Notes under the pieces: model-generated
The model's input: the letters and a program-made list of their open reading frames with translations, nothing else
What the model was told of the DNA's origin: nothing
The model's database searches: none
Shown here: piece after piece, positions 10,996-15,872 of the stretch
Position numbering within the stretch: position 1 is the first letter of the stretch
Layout: each line of letters begins with the position of its first letter
Position numbers and translations under genes: made by a program
NCBI GenBank assembly: GCA_040902505.1
Contig: JBBDXE010000032.1
Location: 112,399-176,398 of the forward strand
Source of the DNA: Dehalococcoidia bacterium
GTDB taxonomy: Bacteria > Chloroflexota > Dehalococcoidia > DSTF01 > JACRBR01
Direction: 5' to 3'
Length of the DNA stretch: 64,000 nt

Positions 10996-11040
10996 GACGC
11001 GCGTCCCTTCGGACGCGTGAGCGCGTCCTTCAGACGCGTC
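10996..11040 (+). promoter_or_regulatory. rpsT leader with four mutually complementary segments (alternative hairpins)
   Basis: CGCGTCC (11000-06), GGACGCG (11011-17), CGCGTCC (11022-28) and GACGCG (11033-38). Pairing can be 1:2 plus 3:4, or 2:3. Confidence 0.4.
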
Positions 11041-11058
11041 ATTCCAGGAGGCAGAACT

Positions 11059-11454
11059 GTGGCACATTCGAAATCAGCGCTCAAGCGCTGGCGCCAGAAC
11101 GAGAAGCGCCGCGCCCGCAACAAGCCCGTCCGGACGTCGGCGCGCACGTCGGTGGTGAAGGCGCGGGAGACGATCGGTACGGGGTCAGCCGAGGAGGCTC
11201 AGGCGGCGGTCCGCGAGGCGGCGAGCATCCTGGACCGGGCGGCGAAGCGGCACATCATCCACCCGAACTCGGCGGCACGCCGCAAGTCGCGGCTGGTGCG
11301 GCGGCTGAACGCCGCGGGCGCAGCGGGCGGCGAGGCGGATGCGCCGAAGAAGACGCGGCGGGCGGCGGCGCCGAAGGCGAAGTCTGCGGCGAAGCCGCGT
11401 GCGGCGGCGAAGAAGCCGGCGGCGCGGGGCCGGGCTTCCTCTAAGGACGCCTAA
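11059..11454 (+). CDS. rpsT: 30S ribosomal protein S20 with Ala/Lys-rich C-terminal tail
   Basis: GTG at 11059 after GGAGGCAGAACT gives (M)AHSKSALKRWRQNEKRRARNK. The tail reads AAPKAKSAAKPRAAAKKPAARG. Confidence 0.9.
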   Translation: MAHSKSALKRWRQNEKRRARNKPVRTSARTSVVKARETIGTGSAEEAQAAVREAASILDRAAKRHIIHPNSAARRKSRLVRRLNAAGAAGGEADAPKKTRRAAAPKAKSAAKPRAAAKKPAARGRASSKDA

Positions 11455-11502
11455 CAAGCCCCGTGGTGCAGTGCGGATGGGGAGTGCCACGATCCCCACT
11501 TA

Positions 11503-11757
11503 GTGTCGAATCGGGCTCGACTTCGTGCCGAAAGCCGGCGCGCGGCCGAGGCTGTCTGCATGCGCCGTTGGAACGATCTGTTCTCGACCCATCCGTCGAC
11601 GGAGCGGCGCATTCGGAACCTGCAGCGCCTGGAGTCGTCACCGCGGCCGCCGTTCCCCGAGGACTGGACCGATGTCGGGGACTTGGTGTGGCTGTTGCCC
11701 GCCGCCAGGTTGGGGATCGGGCTGTTCATGGCGGTGCTGGTTCCGGTACTGATCTGA
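11503..11757 (+). pseudogene. 3' remnant of a peptidase M48 (HtpX-like) gene
   Basis: Only the family's C-terminal signature is present (NDLFSTHPSTERRIRNLQRLE) followed by one TM helix. There is no HExxH-encoding sequence upstream, because rpsT ends only 48 nt before it. Confidence 0.45.
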
Positions 11758-12013
11758 ACTTCCCCGCAGTACCGCAAGGGAAGGTCAGGTTTTTCAGGGG
11801 GCAGGGCAAAGCCACAAACGTGTGCAGCGGCGAAGGAATGCTGGTCGAAGACCACCGCTTCGATACCCATCAGCCCCCAGGGCTGGTCCAGTAACCCAAC
11901 CACCCCAGCTACCGTTCGATCGACCAGAGACCAAGAACGGCATGAGCCACAACCATCACCGCCGCTCTAACCGCCGCAAAGGGTGACGCGAGACGGAGAC
12001 TGACCGACCTGAG

Positions 12014-14119
12014 TTACTGGCGACGCGCCTGCGACTCAGTCACTGGCTCAGCCTTAACCACGGCTTCCTTCGGCTGCCTGGTGCTCTGATCGATCTCGCC
12101 TAACCCCTCGGGATCCTCTTTGCCAACCAGCATGTTTAGGATCGTCCGAAGGTCCAAGTTCGAGTCGGCCCAGGTGAGATACCCCGCGAGTTCCGATACG
12201 TCAGAACAGATAAAATCCGCCCCATGTAGCGCACTGTCCGGCAGGAGCGAGTTGCCACGCAGTGCAAAGCACAGTAGCCCTGCCCCTCTTGCTGACTCTA
12301 TGCCATACGGCGCGTTTTCTACCACACAGCAGTCCTCTGCAGCGACTCCCAGACGTTCGACTGCCTTGGCGTACGGCTGCCGATGCGGCTTCCCATTCTT
12401 TGTGTCATCAGCTGTTATTTGGACATCAAAGAGCTTCAAGAAGTCGGGGCGCTTTGCGAACTTCGTCTCAAGAGACGTTGACCCAGTTACCAACCCAAGT
12501 CTCACGCCTTTAGACTTTAGTGATTTGATTAGATCCTCTATCCCGGGCATGATTTGCAAGTCGAACAGCCTTCTGTATTCTCGCTCTTTCGCGTCGGTGA
12601 TGCGTCTAATCGTCTCCTGATCGGGATCGCCGTCTCGATGCATTCGATACAGTGCTCGGGCCGTCTCATCCTTTTGTTCGCCTTCGCGCTTATATATCTC
12701 GACTGGATCAATGTCAATTCCAGCCGTTTTCCTAAAAGCTGTTACCCAGGCCCTCCGGTAAAAGTCCATGCTGTCAATCACGACTCCATCAAGATCGAAG
12801 AGCACGGCCTTTTGCGTCGTGAGCTTGCGCCATGCAAAGTCAAATCTTCCTTGATAAACTTCAAGCAAATGACGCTCGAAGATGGACTCGTCCTTCGCAT
12901 AGATTAGAAAGTTGCGCTCAGCTCCGACAAGCTCCATCGGGTGTGACGGATCGTACTTATACATGCCTATTAAAGCGCGTGGACTCTCGCCTACTAGATG
13001 AAAGATAAGCACGCGCGGTAACGGCTCCTCCTCGTAGAATCTAACGGCGAAGTTAACTTTGGGATTTGCTCGCGTGACTTCGGCTATCCCTGCAAGCGAG
13101 CCGATCACTTTTGCCCGCTTTCTCTGATCACGACCGGGGTTTCGAATTAGTAGGCGGATGCCCTTCGGAGTCGGGCTCTCCTCTAGACGAGAGCGAAGGC
13201 CCGAATCCAGAGTCTCATATGTGTAAAGCCACAGGTCAAGTTTCGAACTCTTCTCGAAAAGCCCATTGTCCTCAATGAAACGAAGAACATCCGGATCTTC
13301 CGCAGCGATCATATGAACAGCAGGTGGCTCTTCCGGTTGAACATGCATTTGACCCACGCGTTTGTCCCAAACGACCTCGTGAACCTTTACACTGTCCCTG
13401 AAACCTTTCAGCCTTCTCGCTTGGGGTGTGCCGAAACTAAGCCCGTTCTTGGGTGTAAACTGTCGTTTAACGTTCGCCGACACTAGGATCTGCCCCGGCT
13501 TCGCCAATCCGACCAATCGAGCCCCTCGATCGACAACGGAACCGTGCGGATCTGCGGGTACGCCCGTGAAATACTCCGCAAAGAGGACGCTGCCATAATC
13601 GATACCGATTTTGGCCTTGTACTTGTCGATCTGGCTGACAATGCCTTCATTGACTTGATGAAGATGCCGCTGGATGTCTGCGCCAATCTGAACGGCATCT
13701 TTGGCGGCAGACGGGCCCTCAACATATGCCAGGACACCGTCACCCAGGTACTTGCACAATCCGAAGGCCGTCAAACTCCTCTTGCGGACGAAGGATGCCG
13801 CGCGAGCCTCAAACACCTCTGCGACACGGCGATTGAAGGTAACGACCTTCTTGACGCCCAAGTCCATGCCGCGCTCGACCTTGTAGTCGGTGGACTGCGC
13901 CATGTCGACGAACATAATGGCAACATTGCGATGCCGCCGATTAACCCTCTCCCAGGCCTTGTCGATGCCTTCGAATTCGTCAATCAGAGACACGGGGGAG
14001 GCCCCAGTCGTCACGCGGCGGACACTCTTGGGCCGCGCGGGGAGCGGCTTCTTGCTCGCTTTTGCAGTACTTTTGCTAGCCACCTCCGAGACAGTACTGA
14101 AGGCAACATTGGCTGTCAA
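12014..14119 (-). CDS. fusion protein: class III nucleotidyl cyclase, uncharacterised (DUF5919-like) middle domain and HAD-IA phosphatase
   Basis: Cyclase motifs: NVAIMFVDMAQST, CKYLGDGVLAYV, GIDYGSVLF, GSVVDRGARLVGLAKPGQILVS. HAD motifs: AVLFDLDGVVIDS, LGLVTGS, GKPHRQPY, VVENAPYGIESARGAGL. About 50-53% GC against about 70% in flanking genes. The start is uncertain: TTG at 14119 or in-frame GTGs downstream, none with a good RBS. Confidence 0.75.
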   Translation of the reverse strand: MTANVAFSTVSEVASKSTAKASKKPLPARPKSVRRVTTGASPVSLIDEFEGIDKAWERVNRRHRNVAIMFVDMAQSTDYKVERGMDLGVKKVVTFNRRVAEVFEARAASFVRKRSLTAFGLCKYLGDGVLAYVEGPSAAKDAVQIGADIQRHLHQVNEGIVSQIDKYKAKIGIDYGSVLFAEYFTGVPADPHGSVVDRGARLVGLAKPGQILVSANVKRQFTPKNGLSFGTPQARRLKGFRDSVKVHEVVWDKRVGQMHVQPEEPPAVHMIAAEDPDVLRFIEDNGLFEKSSKLDLWLYTYETLDSGLRSRLEESPTPKGIRLLIRNPGRDQRKRAKVIGSLAGIAEVTRANPKVNFAVRFYEEEPLPRVLIFHLVGESPRALIGMYKYDPSHPMELVGAERNFLIYAKDESIFERHLLEVYQGRFDFAWRKLTTQKAVLFDLDGVVIDSMDFYRRAWVTAFRKTAGIDIDPVEIYKREGEQKDETARALYRMHRDGDPDQETIRRITDAKEREYRRLFDLQIMPGIEDLIKSLKSKGVRLGLVTGSTSLETKFAKRPDFLKLFDVQITADDTKNGKPHRQPYAKAVERLGVAAEDCCVVENAPYGIESARGAGLLCFALRGNSLLPDSALHGADFICSDVSELAGYLTWADSNLDLRTILNMLVGKEDPEGLGEIDQSTRQPKEAVVKAEPVTESQARRQ

Positions 14120-14130
14120 TCGGTAGTGGG

Positions 14131-14433
14131 TCAGCTTAAATCAGCCGTGACGGGCCGATCGCCGAGCAGTCCGGCGATCTCCTCTAGTGACCAGATACGA
14201 TCTGTCACGCCTGCGGCCATCGGTGGAGTCTCGCCGCCTAGCGTCTGGTGCAACCTCCCTGTCAGCGTGCTGTACATCCGCGCCCGGTAGTTGTAGAGCC
14301 CCAGCCCGTCGAAGTCCTCCTCCTTCTGGCCGGTGTACCAGCGGTCGGTCGCCCGGCCGTCGCCGGAGATCTCGCGCTCCGCCCCGAACGGCCAGTACTT
14401 GCGGGTGGAGACGACTTTGCCTTCGTTGCTCAC
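14131..14433 (-). pseudogene. chimeric remnant: RHS repeat-associated core segment joined to a transposase-like C-terminal tail
   Basis: YWPFGAERE...RWYTGQKEEDFDGLGLYNYRARMYSTLTGR resembles the end of an RHS/YD core. It runs directly into GETPPMAAGVTDRIWSLEEIAGLL, a motif I associate with the extreme C-termini of some IS transposases. GTG start without an RBS, 2 nt after the upstream stop. Confidence 0.45.
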
Positions 14434-14435
14434 GC

Positions 14436-14672
14436 CTATCGTTCGAGCCGTCCAAGCTTCCAGAAGTAACGTTCTCGTATGTCGGGTCGCAAGCCGTTTA
14501 GCCGCCCCACCTCTCTAACGGCAGCTGCCTTGTTGCGCAGGACGGTCTTGACCACGATGTCTTGCTCCGGGTCAAAGGGGGCCGATTCGTATTCATCGAC
14601 GCGAAATATCACGTACACGTGATCGTACTTCGCGTTCGGCCGCTCCTGTTGCCGCCCAGCACCATTCGTCAT
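14436..14672 (-). CDS. hypothetical small protein (78 aa)
   Basis: ATG preceded by GAGGGA. First gene of the co-oriented island unit. No motif recognised (YDHVYVIFRVDEY...RERYFWKLGRLE). Confidence 0.5.
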   Translation of the reverse strand: MTNGAGRQQERPNAKYDHVYVIFRVDEYESAPFDPEQDIVVKTVLRNKAAAVREVGRLNGLRPDIRERYFWKLGRLER

Positions 14673-14715
14673 CCAGTCCCTCGTGAGGTTCCCGATCCAT
14701 TCACCGTCCGCTCGT

Positions 14716-14745
14716 CATATACATCACTCGTTCTCCCGATGGCAA
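14716..14745 (-). promoter_or_regulatory. candidate promoter of the island transcription unit
   Basis: Minus strand reads TTGCCA (14745-14740), 18-nt spacer, TATATG (14721-14716), 44 nt upstream of the 78-aa ORF. Confidence 0.3.
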
Positions 14746-14802
14746 CGTCGTCATCAGGACGGAGGTGATCTGGCCGTGCTTCCGCATGGCGGGTCGTTAG
14801 GG

Positions 14803-15462
14803 TTAGCGGAAGAAGGTGAAGAGGCGGGTGGCGGGGGTGTAGGGGCGGGGCGGGGCGGTCAGGCGGTGGACGCCGACGCGGTAGCGGAGGTCGTCGGGGG
14901 CATCGTAGGCCACTTCCTCGTAGCCGGAGGCGGTGAACCAGTCGCGGATGGTGAGGGCGAAGTCGCGGTTGGGCTCGCGGCCGCGGGTCCACAGCACGGT
15001 CGCGCCGGGAGCGGCGAGCAACGGGAGGTGCTCGACGGTGCGGCGGACGTCCTCGTCCGGGACGTTGCCGAAGATGCCGCACGCCAGGATGATGTCCGCC
15101 GGGATGGCGGTGTCCGCGGGGACGGCGCCCTCGTAGCTGTCCGTCGTCCCGGCGTCGGCCTCAAGCACTTCGACGCGCTCGAGGCCGGCGGCGGCGGCCG
15201 CATCGCGCGCGACGGCGGCGTTCCGGGGGTCCAGCTCGACGAGGCGCGCGGCGATTTCCTCGCGGCGGGGGTGATCGGCGAGCACGCCGACCACATCGCG
15301 GCCCTCGCCGGCGCACATGCTGATGATGCGGAGGGGGCCGGAGTGGTCGTCGATGGCGCGGCGCAGGTGGTGCTGGACGACGGCCAGCCGGCGGGAGAGG
15401 TTGGAGGCGGGGTCGTCGTAGGCGTTGTGCCACTCGACCCAGTCGCGCGGTCCGGCCTGCAT
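14803..15462 (-). CDS. class I SAM-dependent methyltransferase
   Basis: Start at the ATG 9 nt after the rpsI stop (MQAGPRDWVEWHNAYDD). SAM-binding loop LRIISMCAGEGRDVVGVL. The ORF-track N-terminal extension would overlap rpsI. Confidence 0.7.
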   Translation of the reverse strand: MQAGPRDWVEWHNAYDDPASNLSRRLAVVQHHLRRAIDDHSGPLRIISMCAGEGRDVVGVLADHPRREEIAARLVELDPRNAAVARDAAAAAGLERVEVLEADAGTTDSYEGAVPADTAIPADIILACGIFGNVPDEDVRRTVEHLPLLAAPGATVLWTRGREPNRDFALTIRDWFTASGYEEVAYDAPDDLRYRVGVHRLTAPPRPYTPATRLFTFFR

Positions 15463-15470
15463 CGAGGCCG

Positions 15471-15872
15471 CTAGCGCTTGGTGTACTGCGGGGCCTTGCG
15501 GGCGCGCTTGAGGCCGACCTTCTTGCGCTCCTTCATGCGCGGGTCGCGCGTGAGGAGATGCTGGCGGCGAAGCGCCGGCCGCAGCGTCTCGTCGGAGGCA
15601 GCGAGCGCGCGGGCGATGCCGTGGGAGATGGCGCCCGCCCATCCGCTGATGCCGCCACCCTCGACGTGCACCTGCGTGTTGAACCGCTCGGCGGCTCCGG
15701 CGGCCTTCAGGGGCGCCAGGATGGCGTTCTGGTGCGAGCCGCGGGTGAAGATCTCCTGGTAGCCCTTGCCGTTGACCATGATCTCGCCGGAGCCCGGATA
15801 GAGGCGCACGCGCGCGACGGACGTCTTGCGGCGGCCGGTGCCGTAGAAATAGCGCTCACTCGCTGCTGCCAT
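15471..15872 (-). CDS. rpsI: 30S ribosomal protein S9
   Basis: YFYGTGRRKTSVARVRLYPGSG ... KKVGLKRARKAPQYTKR. Confidence 0.95.
   Translation of the reverse strand: MAAASERYFYGTGRRKTSVARVRLYPGSGEIMVNGKGYQEIFTRGSHQNAILAPLKAAGAAERFNTQVHVEGGGISGWAGAISHGIARALAASDETLRPALRRQHLLTRDPRMKERKKVGLKRARKAPQYTKR

Follow-up and report, generated by a model that had tools for sequence, protein, structure and literature searches.

What could a single bacterial protein achieve by joining a class III nucleotidyl cyclase to a phosphatase, and how did the gene for it come to lie between two ribosomal protein genes? Both questions are raised by an open reading frame (ORF) at 12014-14119 (minus strand) of a 64,000-nucleotide stretch of contig JBBDXE010000032.1 from a soil Chloroflexota genome, the whole of which is called the window here. 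Comparison with its relatives shows that the domain between the two enzymes, which has a phospholipase-D-like (PLD-like) fold, and a HAD phosphatase resembling the inorganic pyrophosphatase BT2127 form a conserved pair, fused or adjacent, with interchangeable N-terminal heads. In the window this head is the cyclase, and the protein is divided as follows, from the N-terminus to the C-terminus:

13355..13942, minus strand: class III nucleotidyl cyclase catalytic domain, residues 60-255 (Pfam, family profile against the PDB, and alignment)
12812..13336, minus strand: middle domain, residues 262-436, with a PLD-superfamily fold and no conserved His (AlphaFold2, Foldseek and alignment)
12170..12811, minus strand: BT2127-like phosphatase of HAD subfamily IA, residues 437-650 (Pfam, NCBIfam, PDB and Foldseek)
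12017..12169, minus strand: C-terminal tail, residues 651-701, predicted to be disordered (predicted local distance difference test score, pLDDT, below 50 for 649-701) and without counterpart in aligned homologues

An initial annotation of the sequence had proposed three modules with their residue ranges. Pfam (cyclase and HAD) and AlphaFold2 with Foldseek (middle domain) confirmed both, and all motif strings quoted there occur in the translation. The first full-length AlphaFold2 model was poor (pLDDT 60, built from 4 sequences) and was used for the HAD part only.

The frame runs uninterrupted for 701 codons from a TTG at 14117-14119 to a stop at 12014-12016. Its start codon is uncertain because the public gene call (P0001, 666 amino acids, 100% identical) begins instead at a GTG at 14012-14014 on the same strand, residue 36 of the longer version; all domains are intact either way, and inspection by eye found no clear ribosome-binding site at the TTG or the GTG. 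The homologues P0002 and P0003 match the full-length ORF with 40-42% identity over 85-89% of its length, so that the 701-residue ORF is no chance frame. The catalytic motifs of both the cyclase and the HAD and the conserved residues of the middle domain are all intact in it.

The cyclase assignment rests on a Pfam Guanylate_cyc (PF00211) match over residues 61-245 (24.1 bits, above the gathering score of 21.9) and on a profile of the eight cyclase domains in the family, for which the best match in the PDB is the Ma1120 adenylyl cyclase (E 6e-12), followed by photoactivated cyclases and CyaB. Both metal-binding Asp residues are present, D72 in FVDM and D127 in LGDG; the first is invariant in the eight family cyclases and the second is found in seven of them, being lost in P0019. 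The substrate-specifying residues K123 and D190 are in place and correspond to the pair that specifies adenine in canonical adenylyl cyclases, which would point to ATP as the substrate and probably to cyclic AMP as the product. The transition-state Arg is present as R201. The canonical Asn position of the G-x-x-V-N-x-A-x-R motif is occupied by an Asp, D197, as it is in seven of the eight family cyclases, P0034 having the Asn. In P0019 the GD of the second metal motif is replaced by NN and the substrate Lys by N, and this cyclase is probably inactive because the second metal Asp and the Lys are both lost. Two further proteins, P0080 and P0081 (333 amino acids), belong to the same cyclase clade (41-43% identity) and carry at the C-terminus an unrelated domain of ~110 residues that has no Pfam match; the cyclase head is thus mobile itself, shuffling among C-terminal modules.

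The AlphaFold2 model of the middle domain, built with 50 homologous domains, has a pLDDT of 94.3. Foldseek matched it to the nuclease domain of SauUSI (E 1.7e-5) and also to FAM83 pseudo-PLD, Streptomyces PLD, the C-domains of PPK1, MITD1, PssA and Tdp1, with probabilities of 0.99-1.0 and template modelling scores of 0.45-0.56 to SauUSI, PLD, PPK1, MITD1 and FAM83. A further match is to a phage protein that carries the annotation PPK C1 domain. Conserved residues are Y299, E302, T303, R322, R326, Y362, P366, R369, G385, Y387, G399, E401, N403, R425 and W430, and the family pattern includes G-x-Y, G-A-E-x-N and R-F...W together with several R, Y, E, T and P positions. In alignments of 14 and of 50 middle domains, where the HxK(x)4D motif was sought, no column that is invariant or nearly so holds a His or a Lys. 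By pattern matching, R369 would stand at the position of the PLD Lys and a hydrophobic residue at that of the His. To our knowledge, every characterised catalyst of the PLD superfamily needs a catalytic His. An active PLD-type nuclease or transferase was therefore rejected as a candidate, since without a conserved His the domain would be no PLD-type catalyst by the standard mechanism.

The initial annotation had also likened this domain to DUF5919. The likeness survives as a recurrent sub-threshold similarity in four of 50 relatives (E 0.0023-1; 13.1 bits in P0002), aligned co-linearly with the model's C-terminal half. Membership does not: the domain in the window has no Pfam match, and thus none to DUF5919 (PF19319, gathering score 23.5), and what can be demonstrated is a PLD fold without the conserved His. 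This suggests that the domain is remotely akin to DUF5919 rather than a member of it. A literature search returned nothing on DUF5919, DUF7931 or PF19319.

The HAD domain is matched by the Pfam models HAD_2 and Hydrolase over residues 437-618 (E 1e-25; HAD_2 E 3e-25). It has a C1 cap and all four HAD motifs (DxD; T/S; K; E/D-D/N), as D442/D444, T545, K577 and E601-N602. The best NCBIfam model is the inorganic diphosphatase NF053653 (143.9 bits), ahead of the beta-phosphoglucomutase models; the score does not reach the equivalog cutoff of 245 bits. BT2127 and its mutants are the closest PDB entries (3qu2, E 1.6e-28, about 32% identity over 200 residues), and the top 23 Foldseek matches are all BT2127 (template modelling score 0.81-0.87, root mean square deviation 2.1-2.8 A). 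Asp11, Asp13 and Glu47 of BT2127, which its depositors mutated and whose roles are read from the titles and mutant sequences of the PDB entries, have D442, D444 and the cap residue E479 as their counterparts, the last of which aligns with the Glu mutated in PDB 3R9K, 3QUB and 3QYP. 'GKP' and the motif IV 'ENAP.G' are likewise shared with BT2127. Among the family HADs, the catalytic motifs and the 'EN' of motif IV are found in all complete ones and the 'Y..EG' of the cap in all but P0043.

Behind the HAD lies a C-terminal helix with the pattern [W/F]-x-D-x-N…[L/F][L/F], which in the window covers residues ~635-650 (~12170-12215) and reads W-x-D-x-N. It is shared by nearly all cyclase-headed members (P0023 has the variant L-M-D-T-N) and several other soluble-headed members, and it is missing in nearly all members headed by two transmembrane (TM) helices (P0027 has a terminal FADAN). 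By this distribution the family splits into two subfamilies, and the helix hints at a docking or autoinhibitory element.

How widespread is this arrangement? A profile of the middle domain, run against 1.84 billion representative proteins, gave 62 matches at E <= 0.001 and 42 at E <= 1e-10; among the 62, P0066 is a repeat artefact. Most family members are encoded on short contigs from Logan or ENA, and their architectures were determined by local domain mapping of the proteins:

Cyclase, middle domain and HAD: the window protein, P0002, P0003, P0013, P0019 and P0023
Cyclase and middle domain without a fused HAD: P0017 and P0034, which makes eight cyclase heads in total
Two TM helices, middle domain and HAD: about 11 proteins, the largest group
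Other soluble heads, middle domain and HAD: about nine proteins, including sub-threshold helix-turn-helix (HTH) matches in P0032 and P0048 and a sub-threshold AbiEii match in P0018
Nuc_deoxyrib_tr-like (NDT/TIR-like) head and middle domain: P0042, P0049 and P0050, the head being matched by a profile in P0042 and P0050 only and recognised by eye in P0049
Unassigned head of about 210 residues and middle domain: P0035, P0037 and P0046, with the motifs …IVYFDLLGFD…KTSADGYMLLF…ICVNCGD…
TM and middle domain: distant proteins at the periphery of the family

By eye, the head of the P0037 type resembles a degenerate cyclase or palm domain; an hhalign comparison with the cyclase profile gave a probability of 0.8%, and no such assignment is claimed.

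That the PLD-like domain and the BT2127-like HAD work together is most strongly indicated by the pattern of fusion and fission across these proteins. A HAD that is not fused is often encoded by a neighbouring gene: one for a separate HAD of 234-236 amino acids adjoins the genes for P0037 (L054), P0072 (L044/L045, where stop and start overlap) and P0013 (L043), and in all three cases the best match of the separate HAD is again NF053653, with 142-166 bits.

Beyond this set the family is hardly seen. A scan of the 185,579 species representatives of GTDB with a 4-sequence alignment, limited by the pattern used, found no relative, and phage and plasmid collections gave no tblastn match to the middle domain. 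A degenerate DNA pattern of 41 bits (G.Y-x11-GAE.N-x21-RF...W) had no match in IMG/VR; in JGI metagenome contigs it had one, a chance match inside an aminotransferase-like gene that was discarded. A word-indexed homologue search with a 50-sequence profile of the middle domain returned four distant members only. The literature search found no characterised protein or paper with the order cyclase, PLD-like domain, HAD, and this absence, like the rarity of the family (62 representatives), fits the statement of the initial annotation that no characterised protein has this order. Each part belongs to a known superfamily, and their combination in a multidomain class III cyclase is unprecedented.

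What would such a pair do? We tentatively favour, at somewhat less than even confidence, a reading in which the constant core of PLD-like domain and HAD is a phospho-ligand switch that drives a swappable output, here the cyclase. The PLD-like domain would not be catalytic; its pocket, with many Arg and Tyr residues, would bind a small phosphate-bearing ligand, and the domain would aid dimerisation. The HAD would hydrolyse the bound ligand, for which inorganic pyrophosphate (PPi) is the leading candidate, and so set or reset the switch. The state of the core would then control the N-terminal head, in this case a dimeric cyclase that would convert a nucleoside triphosphate (NTP) to a cyclic nucleoside monophosphate and PPi, and in this fusion the HAD could also clear the PPi made by the cyclase itself.

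Several points weigh against such a switch. The position of the transition-state Asn in canonical enzymes is taken by an Asp in this cyclase, and, judging from the degenerate domain of P0019, not all family members with a cyclase head retain cyclase catalysis. As the HAD scores below the BT2127 equivalog cutoff, its substrate need not be PPi. The case for ligand sensing by the PLD-like domain consists of the loss of the His and the pattern of conserved residues. A HAD that is always catalytic would suit an effector enzyme just as well as an enzyme that resets a signal, and the two-TM heads may be plain membrane anchors instead of outputs.

Class III cyclases release PPi, and the same HAD could also be read in another way. 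In this account, which the initial annotation had raised as removal of PPi in cis, cyclase and pyrophosphatase are coupled within one chain: the HAD would remove the PPi, pull the reaction forward and relieve product inhibition, with the PLD-like domain as a linker or dimer scaffold. The closeness of the HAD to BT2127 in both sequence and structure and the conservation of E479 and of the 'EN' in motif IV lend this idea specific support, and one other head is AbiEii-like (sub-threshold), a nucleotidyltransferase that would also release PPi. However, the largest subgroup consists of two-TM helices, middle domain and HAD, and HTH-like heads occur as well; as neither makes PPi, removing it for a cyclase cannot be the general role of the core. 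The HAD also stays beside genes for TM and middle-domain proteins that have no cyclase, a cyclase and middle-domain protein without a HAD exists (P0034), P0019 retains its HAD despite a degenerate cyclase, and the conservation of the middle-domain pocket exceeds what a linker would need. Removing PPi in cis is plausible for this fusion but cannot have been what the core did ancestrally, and as the main reason for the fusion it seems unlikely.

The HAD also belongs to the beta-phosphoglucomutase-like HAD-IA group, and several family members are publicly named 'beta-phosphoglucomutase'. Perhaps a phosphorylated metabolite (a sugar phosphate or a lipid head group, for example) is processed first by one and then by the other of the two domains, PLD-like and HAD, with the cyclase as a regulatory add-on. 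A 1-phosphofructokinase-type kinase gene follows the HAD and TM-middle genes in L044/L045, a HAD gene and an inositol-monophosphatase-family gene lie near P0023, and the PLD superfamily includes phosphatidyl-transferases, among them the Foldseek match PssA. A metabolic pair of this kind is nevertheless quite improbable, as the middle domain lacks a conserved His and, unlike core metabolism, the family is patchy, extremely rare and located in variable regions.

The window gene lies in an insert between housekeeping genes, with murJ and rpsT on one side and rpsI, rplM, truA, rplQ and the rest of the ribosomal-protein cluster on the other:

11017..11454, plus strand: rpsT (ribosomal protein S20), conserved flank (Pfam and synteny)
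11455..15470, no strand: strain-specific insert of 4 kb between rpsT and rpsI (synteny, translated comparison with relatives, and GC profile)
11503..11757, plus strand: short ORF of 84 amino acids at the rpsT edge of the insert, with 'FSTHPSTERRIRNL' (FSTHPSTERRI) followed by a hydrophobic tail; judged by eye, probably the C-terminal remnant of an M48/HtpX-type peptidase
14131..14433, minus strand: gene remnant of 100 amino acids directly upstream of the ORF, with an Rhs-associated-core-like YD repeat (NCBIfam TIGR03696, E 2.7e-4, below cutoff)
14803..15462, minus strand: methyltransferase-like gene with host-like GC content (Pfam Methyltransf_20, E 3.8e-4, below cutoff; PADLOC mad2, E 4e-7)
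15471..15872, minus strand: rpsI (ribosomal protein S9), a conserved flank that closes the rplQ-truA-rplM-rpsI cluster (Pfam and synteny)

The corresponding loci of relatives were found by a scan with MurJ, one genome per GTDB species. Of the resulting 38 loci, 37 are from uncultured Chloroflexota (metagenome-assembled genomes of the class Dehalococcoidia, best identity 81%) and one is from Microbacterium (29% identity). The order rplQ-truA-rplM-rpsI-rpsT-murJ(-nhaA) is kept in about half of them, with 0.2-2.6 kb between rpsI and rpsT. The ORF occurs in none of the 38, and translated pieces of 11455-15470 matched none of them either. The GC content is 0.531 and 0.546 within 12001-14000 and 0.63-0.73 in the rest of the window, with ~68-70% in the flanks; at 200-nucleotide resolution the low-GC stretch extends over ~11700-14800 with a minimum of 0.475. 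At third codon positions the ORF has a GC content of 0.60 compared with ~0.85-0.95 in neighbouring genes. Composition at both levels and absence from the related loci thus uphold the low-GC foreign island of the initial annotation: a deviant composition coincides with absence at a conserved site in relatives. The ORF is an intact, foreign, horizontally acquired gene. Neither a tRNA gene nor a target-site duplication, terminal (inverted) repeats or an intact mobility gene was found at the ends of the insert.

In the Chloroflexota loci (L004-L040) the short rpsI-rpsT gap is variable and its cargo differs by genome, being a gene for an S-adenosylmethionine (SAM) methyltransferase or an alpha/beta-hydrolase-like, HAD-like or Cys-rich ORF; examples are L007 7413-9579, L033 8165-9472 and L005 8505-9385. 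The methyltransferase-like gene of the window insert is unrelated to the SAM methyltransferase in the same gap of L034, L012, L024 and L007. Its likely start is M61 of the listed ORF 14803-15642, just past the rpsI stop. The tail of 14131-14433 (…LGGETPPMAAGVTDRIWSLEEIAGLL) resembles by eye the C-terminus of a DDE transposase, and two gene remnants appear to be joined here.

These surroundings could also mean that the ORF is non-functional cargo, a decaying passenger of an old insertion without a role for the host. Gene remnants flank it on both sides (Rhs-core-like, transposase-like tail, peptidase-like), its GC content is not ameliorated, and a promoter and terminator scan stayed at background level, with no promoter-like site upstream on the minus strand. 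Against this stands the frame itself, 2.1 kb long and uninterrupted, with every catalytic motif and conserved middle-domain residue in place, and decay is therefore considered extremely unlikely.

About ten neighbourhoods of other family members were read. P0019 (L046 179-3282 / L047 2332-5435) is convergent with a gene for a 347-residue TIR-like protein of the CAP12/PCTIR kind, which matches the PADLOC candidate PDC-S35 (E 7.5e-24) and PycTIR (E 3e-8). In L044 439-2980 / L045 713-3254, genes for the BT2127-like HAD (236 amino acids), the TM and middle-domain protein P0072 (292 amino acids) and the 1-phosphofructokinase-type kinase (312 amino acids) follow each other, the first two overlapping; the cluster adjoins NsnA/GmrSD-, LmuB-, IetA- and BrxP-like genes, and no PADLOC model matched its three genes. 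P0031 lies near PemK- and E1-like genes, and P0032 in a variable island with a serine recombinase. P0034 lies near Trypsin_2 and VWA genes, with no HAD fused to it or among the genes called beside it on the contigs read. Besides the HAD and inositol-monophosphatase-family genes, P0023 has HNH_repeat genes nearby. The gene for P0004 (TM, middle domain and HAD; L002 185-4147) is 170 bp downstream of a gene for an 800-residue Ser/Thr protein kinase on the same strand. Taken together, the neighbourhoods point to variable or defence-type regions; they are sparse and mixed and constitute no proof.

Could the window protein then be part of an anti-phage abortive-infection system of the Pycsar or CBASS kind, in which its cyclic nucleotide activates an effector encoded elsewhere, or in which cyclase and phosphatase drain NTPs? 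A foreign island at a variable locus would be a fitting place, four relatives (P0019, P0072, P0031 and P0032) are near defence-type or mobile genes, and the repertoire of heads (TM, NDT/TIR-like, nucleotidyltransferase-like) resembles defence effectors. The PycC models of PADLOC do match the window protein weakly (E 6.4e-6 and 1.6e-4), but no more strongly than the generic Pfam cyclase model, and neither this protein nor P0072 matches any other PADLOC model. Nor was an effector detected in the island: of its other ORFs (11451-11903, 14131-14433, 14436-14672 and 14803-15642), three have no Pfam match at E <= 0.01 and the fourth has the weak methyltransferase match, so that no gene with a cyclic-nucleotide-binding domain was found. 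With the weak PycC scores and no effector detected, the analogy to Pycsar drawn in the initial annotation is not supported. Further points against a defence role are the lack of family matches in IMG/VR and in the phage and plasmid collections, the heterogeneity of the neighbourhoods, about ten only, and the fact that the TIR-like neighbour belongs to P0019, the member with the degenerate cyclase. On this evidence an abortive-infection system seems unlikely.

The readings overlap, as a phospho-ligand switch could act in a defence context and its HAD could also clear the PPi of the cyclase. A broader form of the switch is conceivable, though doubtful: the PLD-like domain and the HAD would be an unrecognised phospho-ligand sensing and resetting module of conflict or signalling systems, with interchangeable effectors (cyclase, two-TM pore-former, NDT/TIR-like nucleotide hydrolase, nucleotidyltransferase-like toxin, HTH), and the window protein would be a single-chain immune or stress switch leading from sensor to second messenger.

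If the core is indeed a ligand-gated switch, a PLD-shaped pseudo-enzyme coupled to a phosphatase would represent a new type of sensor for bacterial one-component signalling or defence. It would provide the first functional handle on DUF5919-like domains and an instance in which a nucleotide cyclase is hard-wired to the very enzyme by which its by-product or regulator is destroyed. With a small, clearly delimited family and evident point mutants for every module, these hypotheses could be tested at little cost.

Comparison with known systems places the window protein near several of them. Pycsar pairs a pyrimidine cyclase with a cyclic-pyrimidine receptor/effector (PMC11224242), and the likeness lies in a class III-type cyclase at a foreign, variable locus; the window island differs in that no adjacent cyclic-nucleotide-binding TIR or TM effector was found in it, and its cyclase carries two extra fused domains that are not described for PycC. 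P-type ATPases have a HAD-fold phosphorylation domain. If the HAD superfamily is taken broadly, the guanylate cyclases of alveolates, which are fused to a P4-ATPase (PMC6592433), also combine one of its members with a cyclase in one polypeptide. Those proteins, however, are eukaryotic, huge and membrane-embedded, have the opposite domain order and a flippase instead of a small soluble HAD-IA, and contain no PLD-like domain.

The middle domain is best compared with the catalytically inactive PLD folds of FAM83 (DUF1669 / BJ-TSA-9, PDB 4URJ) and MITD1 (PDB 4A5Z), which are also single PLD-superfamily domains; the sequences show no detectable relationship to it (8-14% identity). BT2127 is a HAD-type inorganic pyrophosphatase of Bacteroides thetaiotaomicron (PDB 3QU2), whereas the HAD of the window is a domain of a 701-residue protein, always partnered with a PLD-like domain, and its substrate is predicted. 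Proteins with a cyclase, an AAA_16 ATPase and tetratricopeptide repeats (P0010) share with the window protein an N-terminal class III cyclase followed by non-cyclase modules. With multidomain bacterial class III adenylyl cyclases of this layout, whose C-terminal modules are regulatory, it shares the metal Asp pair, the Lys/Asp pair and the Arg; a homodimeric mechanism would be expected, and Ma1120 is the nearest solved cyclase. It is set apart from them by the Asp that replaces the transition-state Asn and by the nature of its C-terminal modules, a PLD fold without the His and a HAD.

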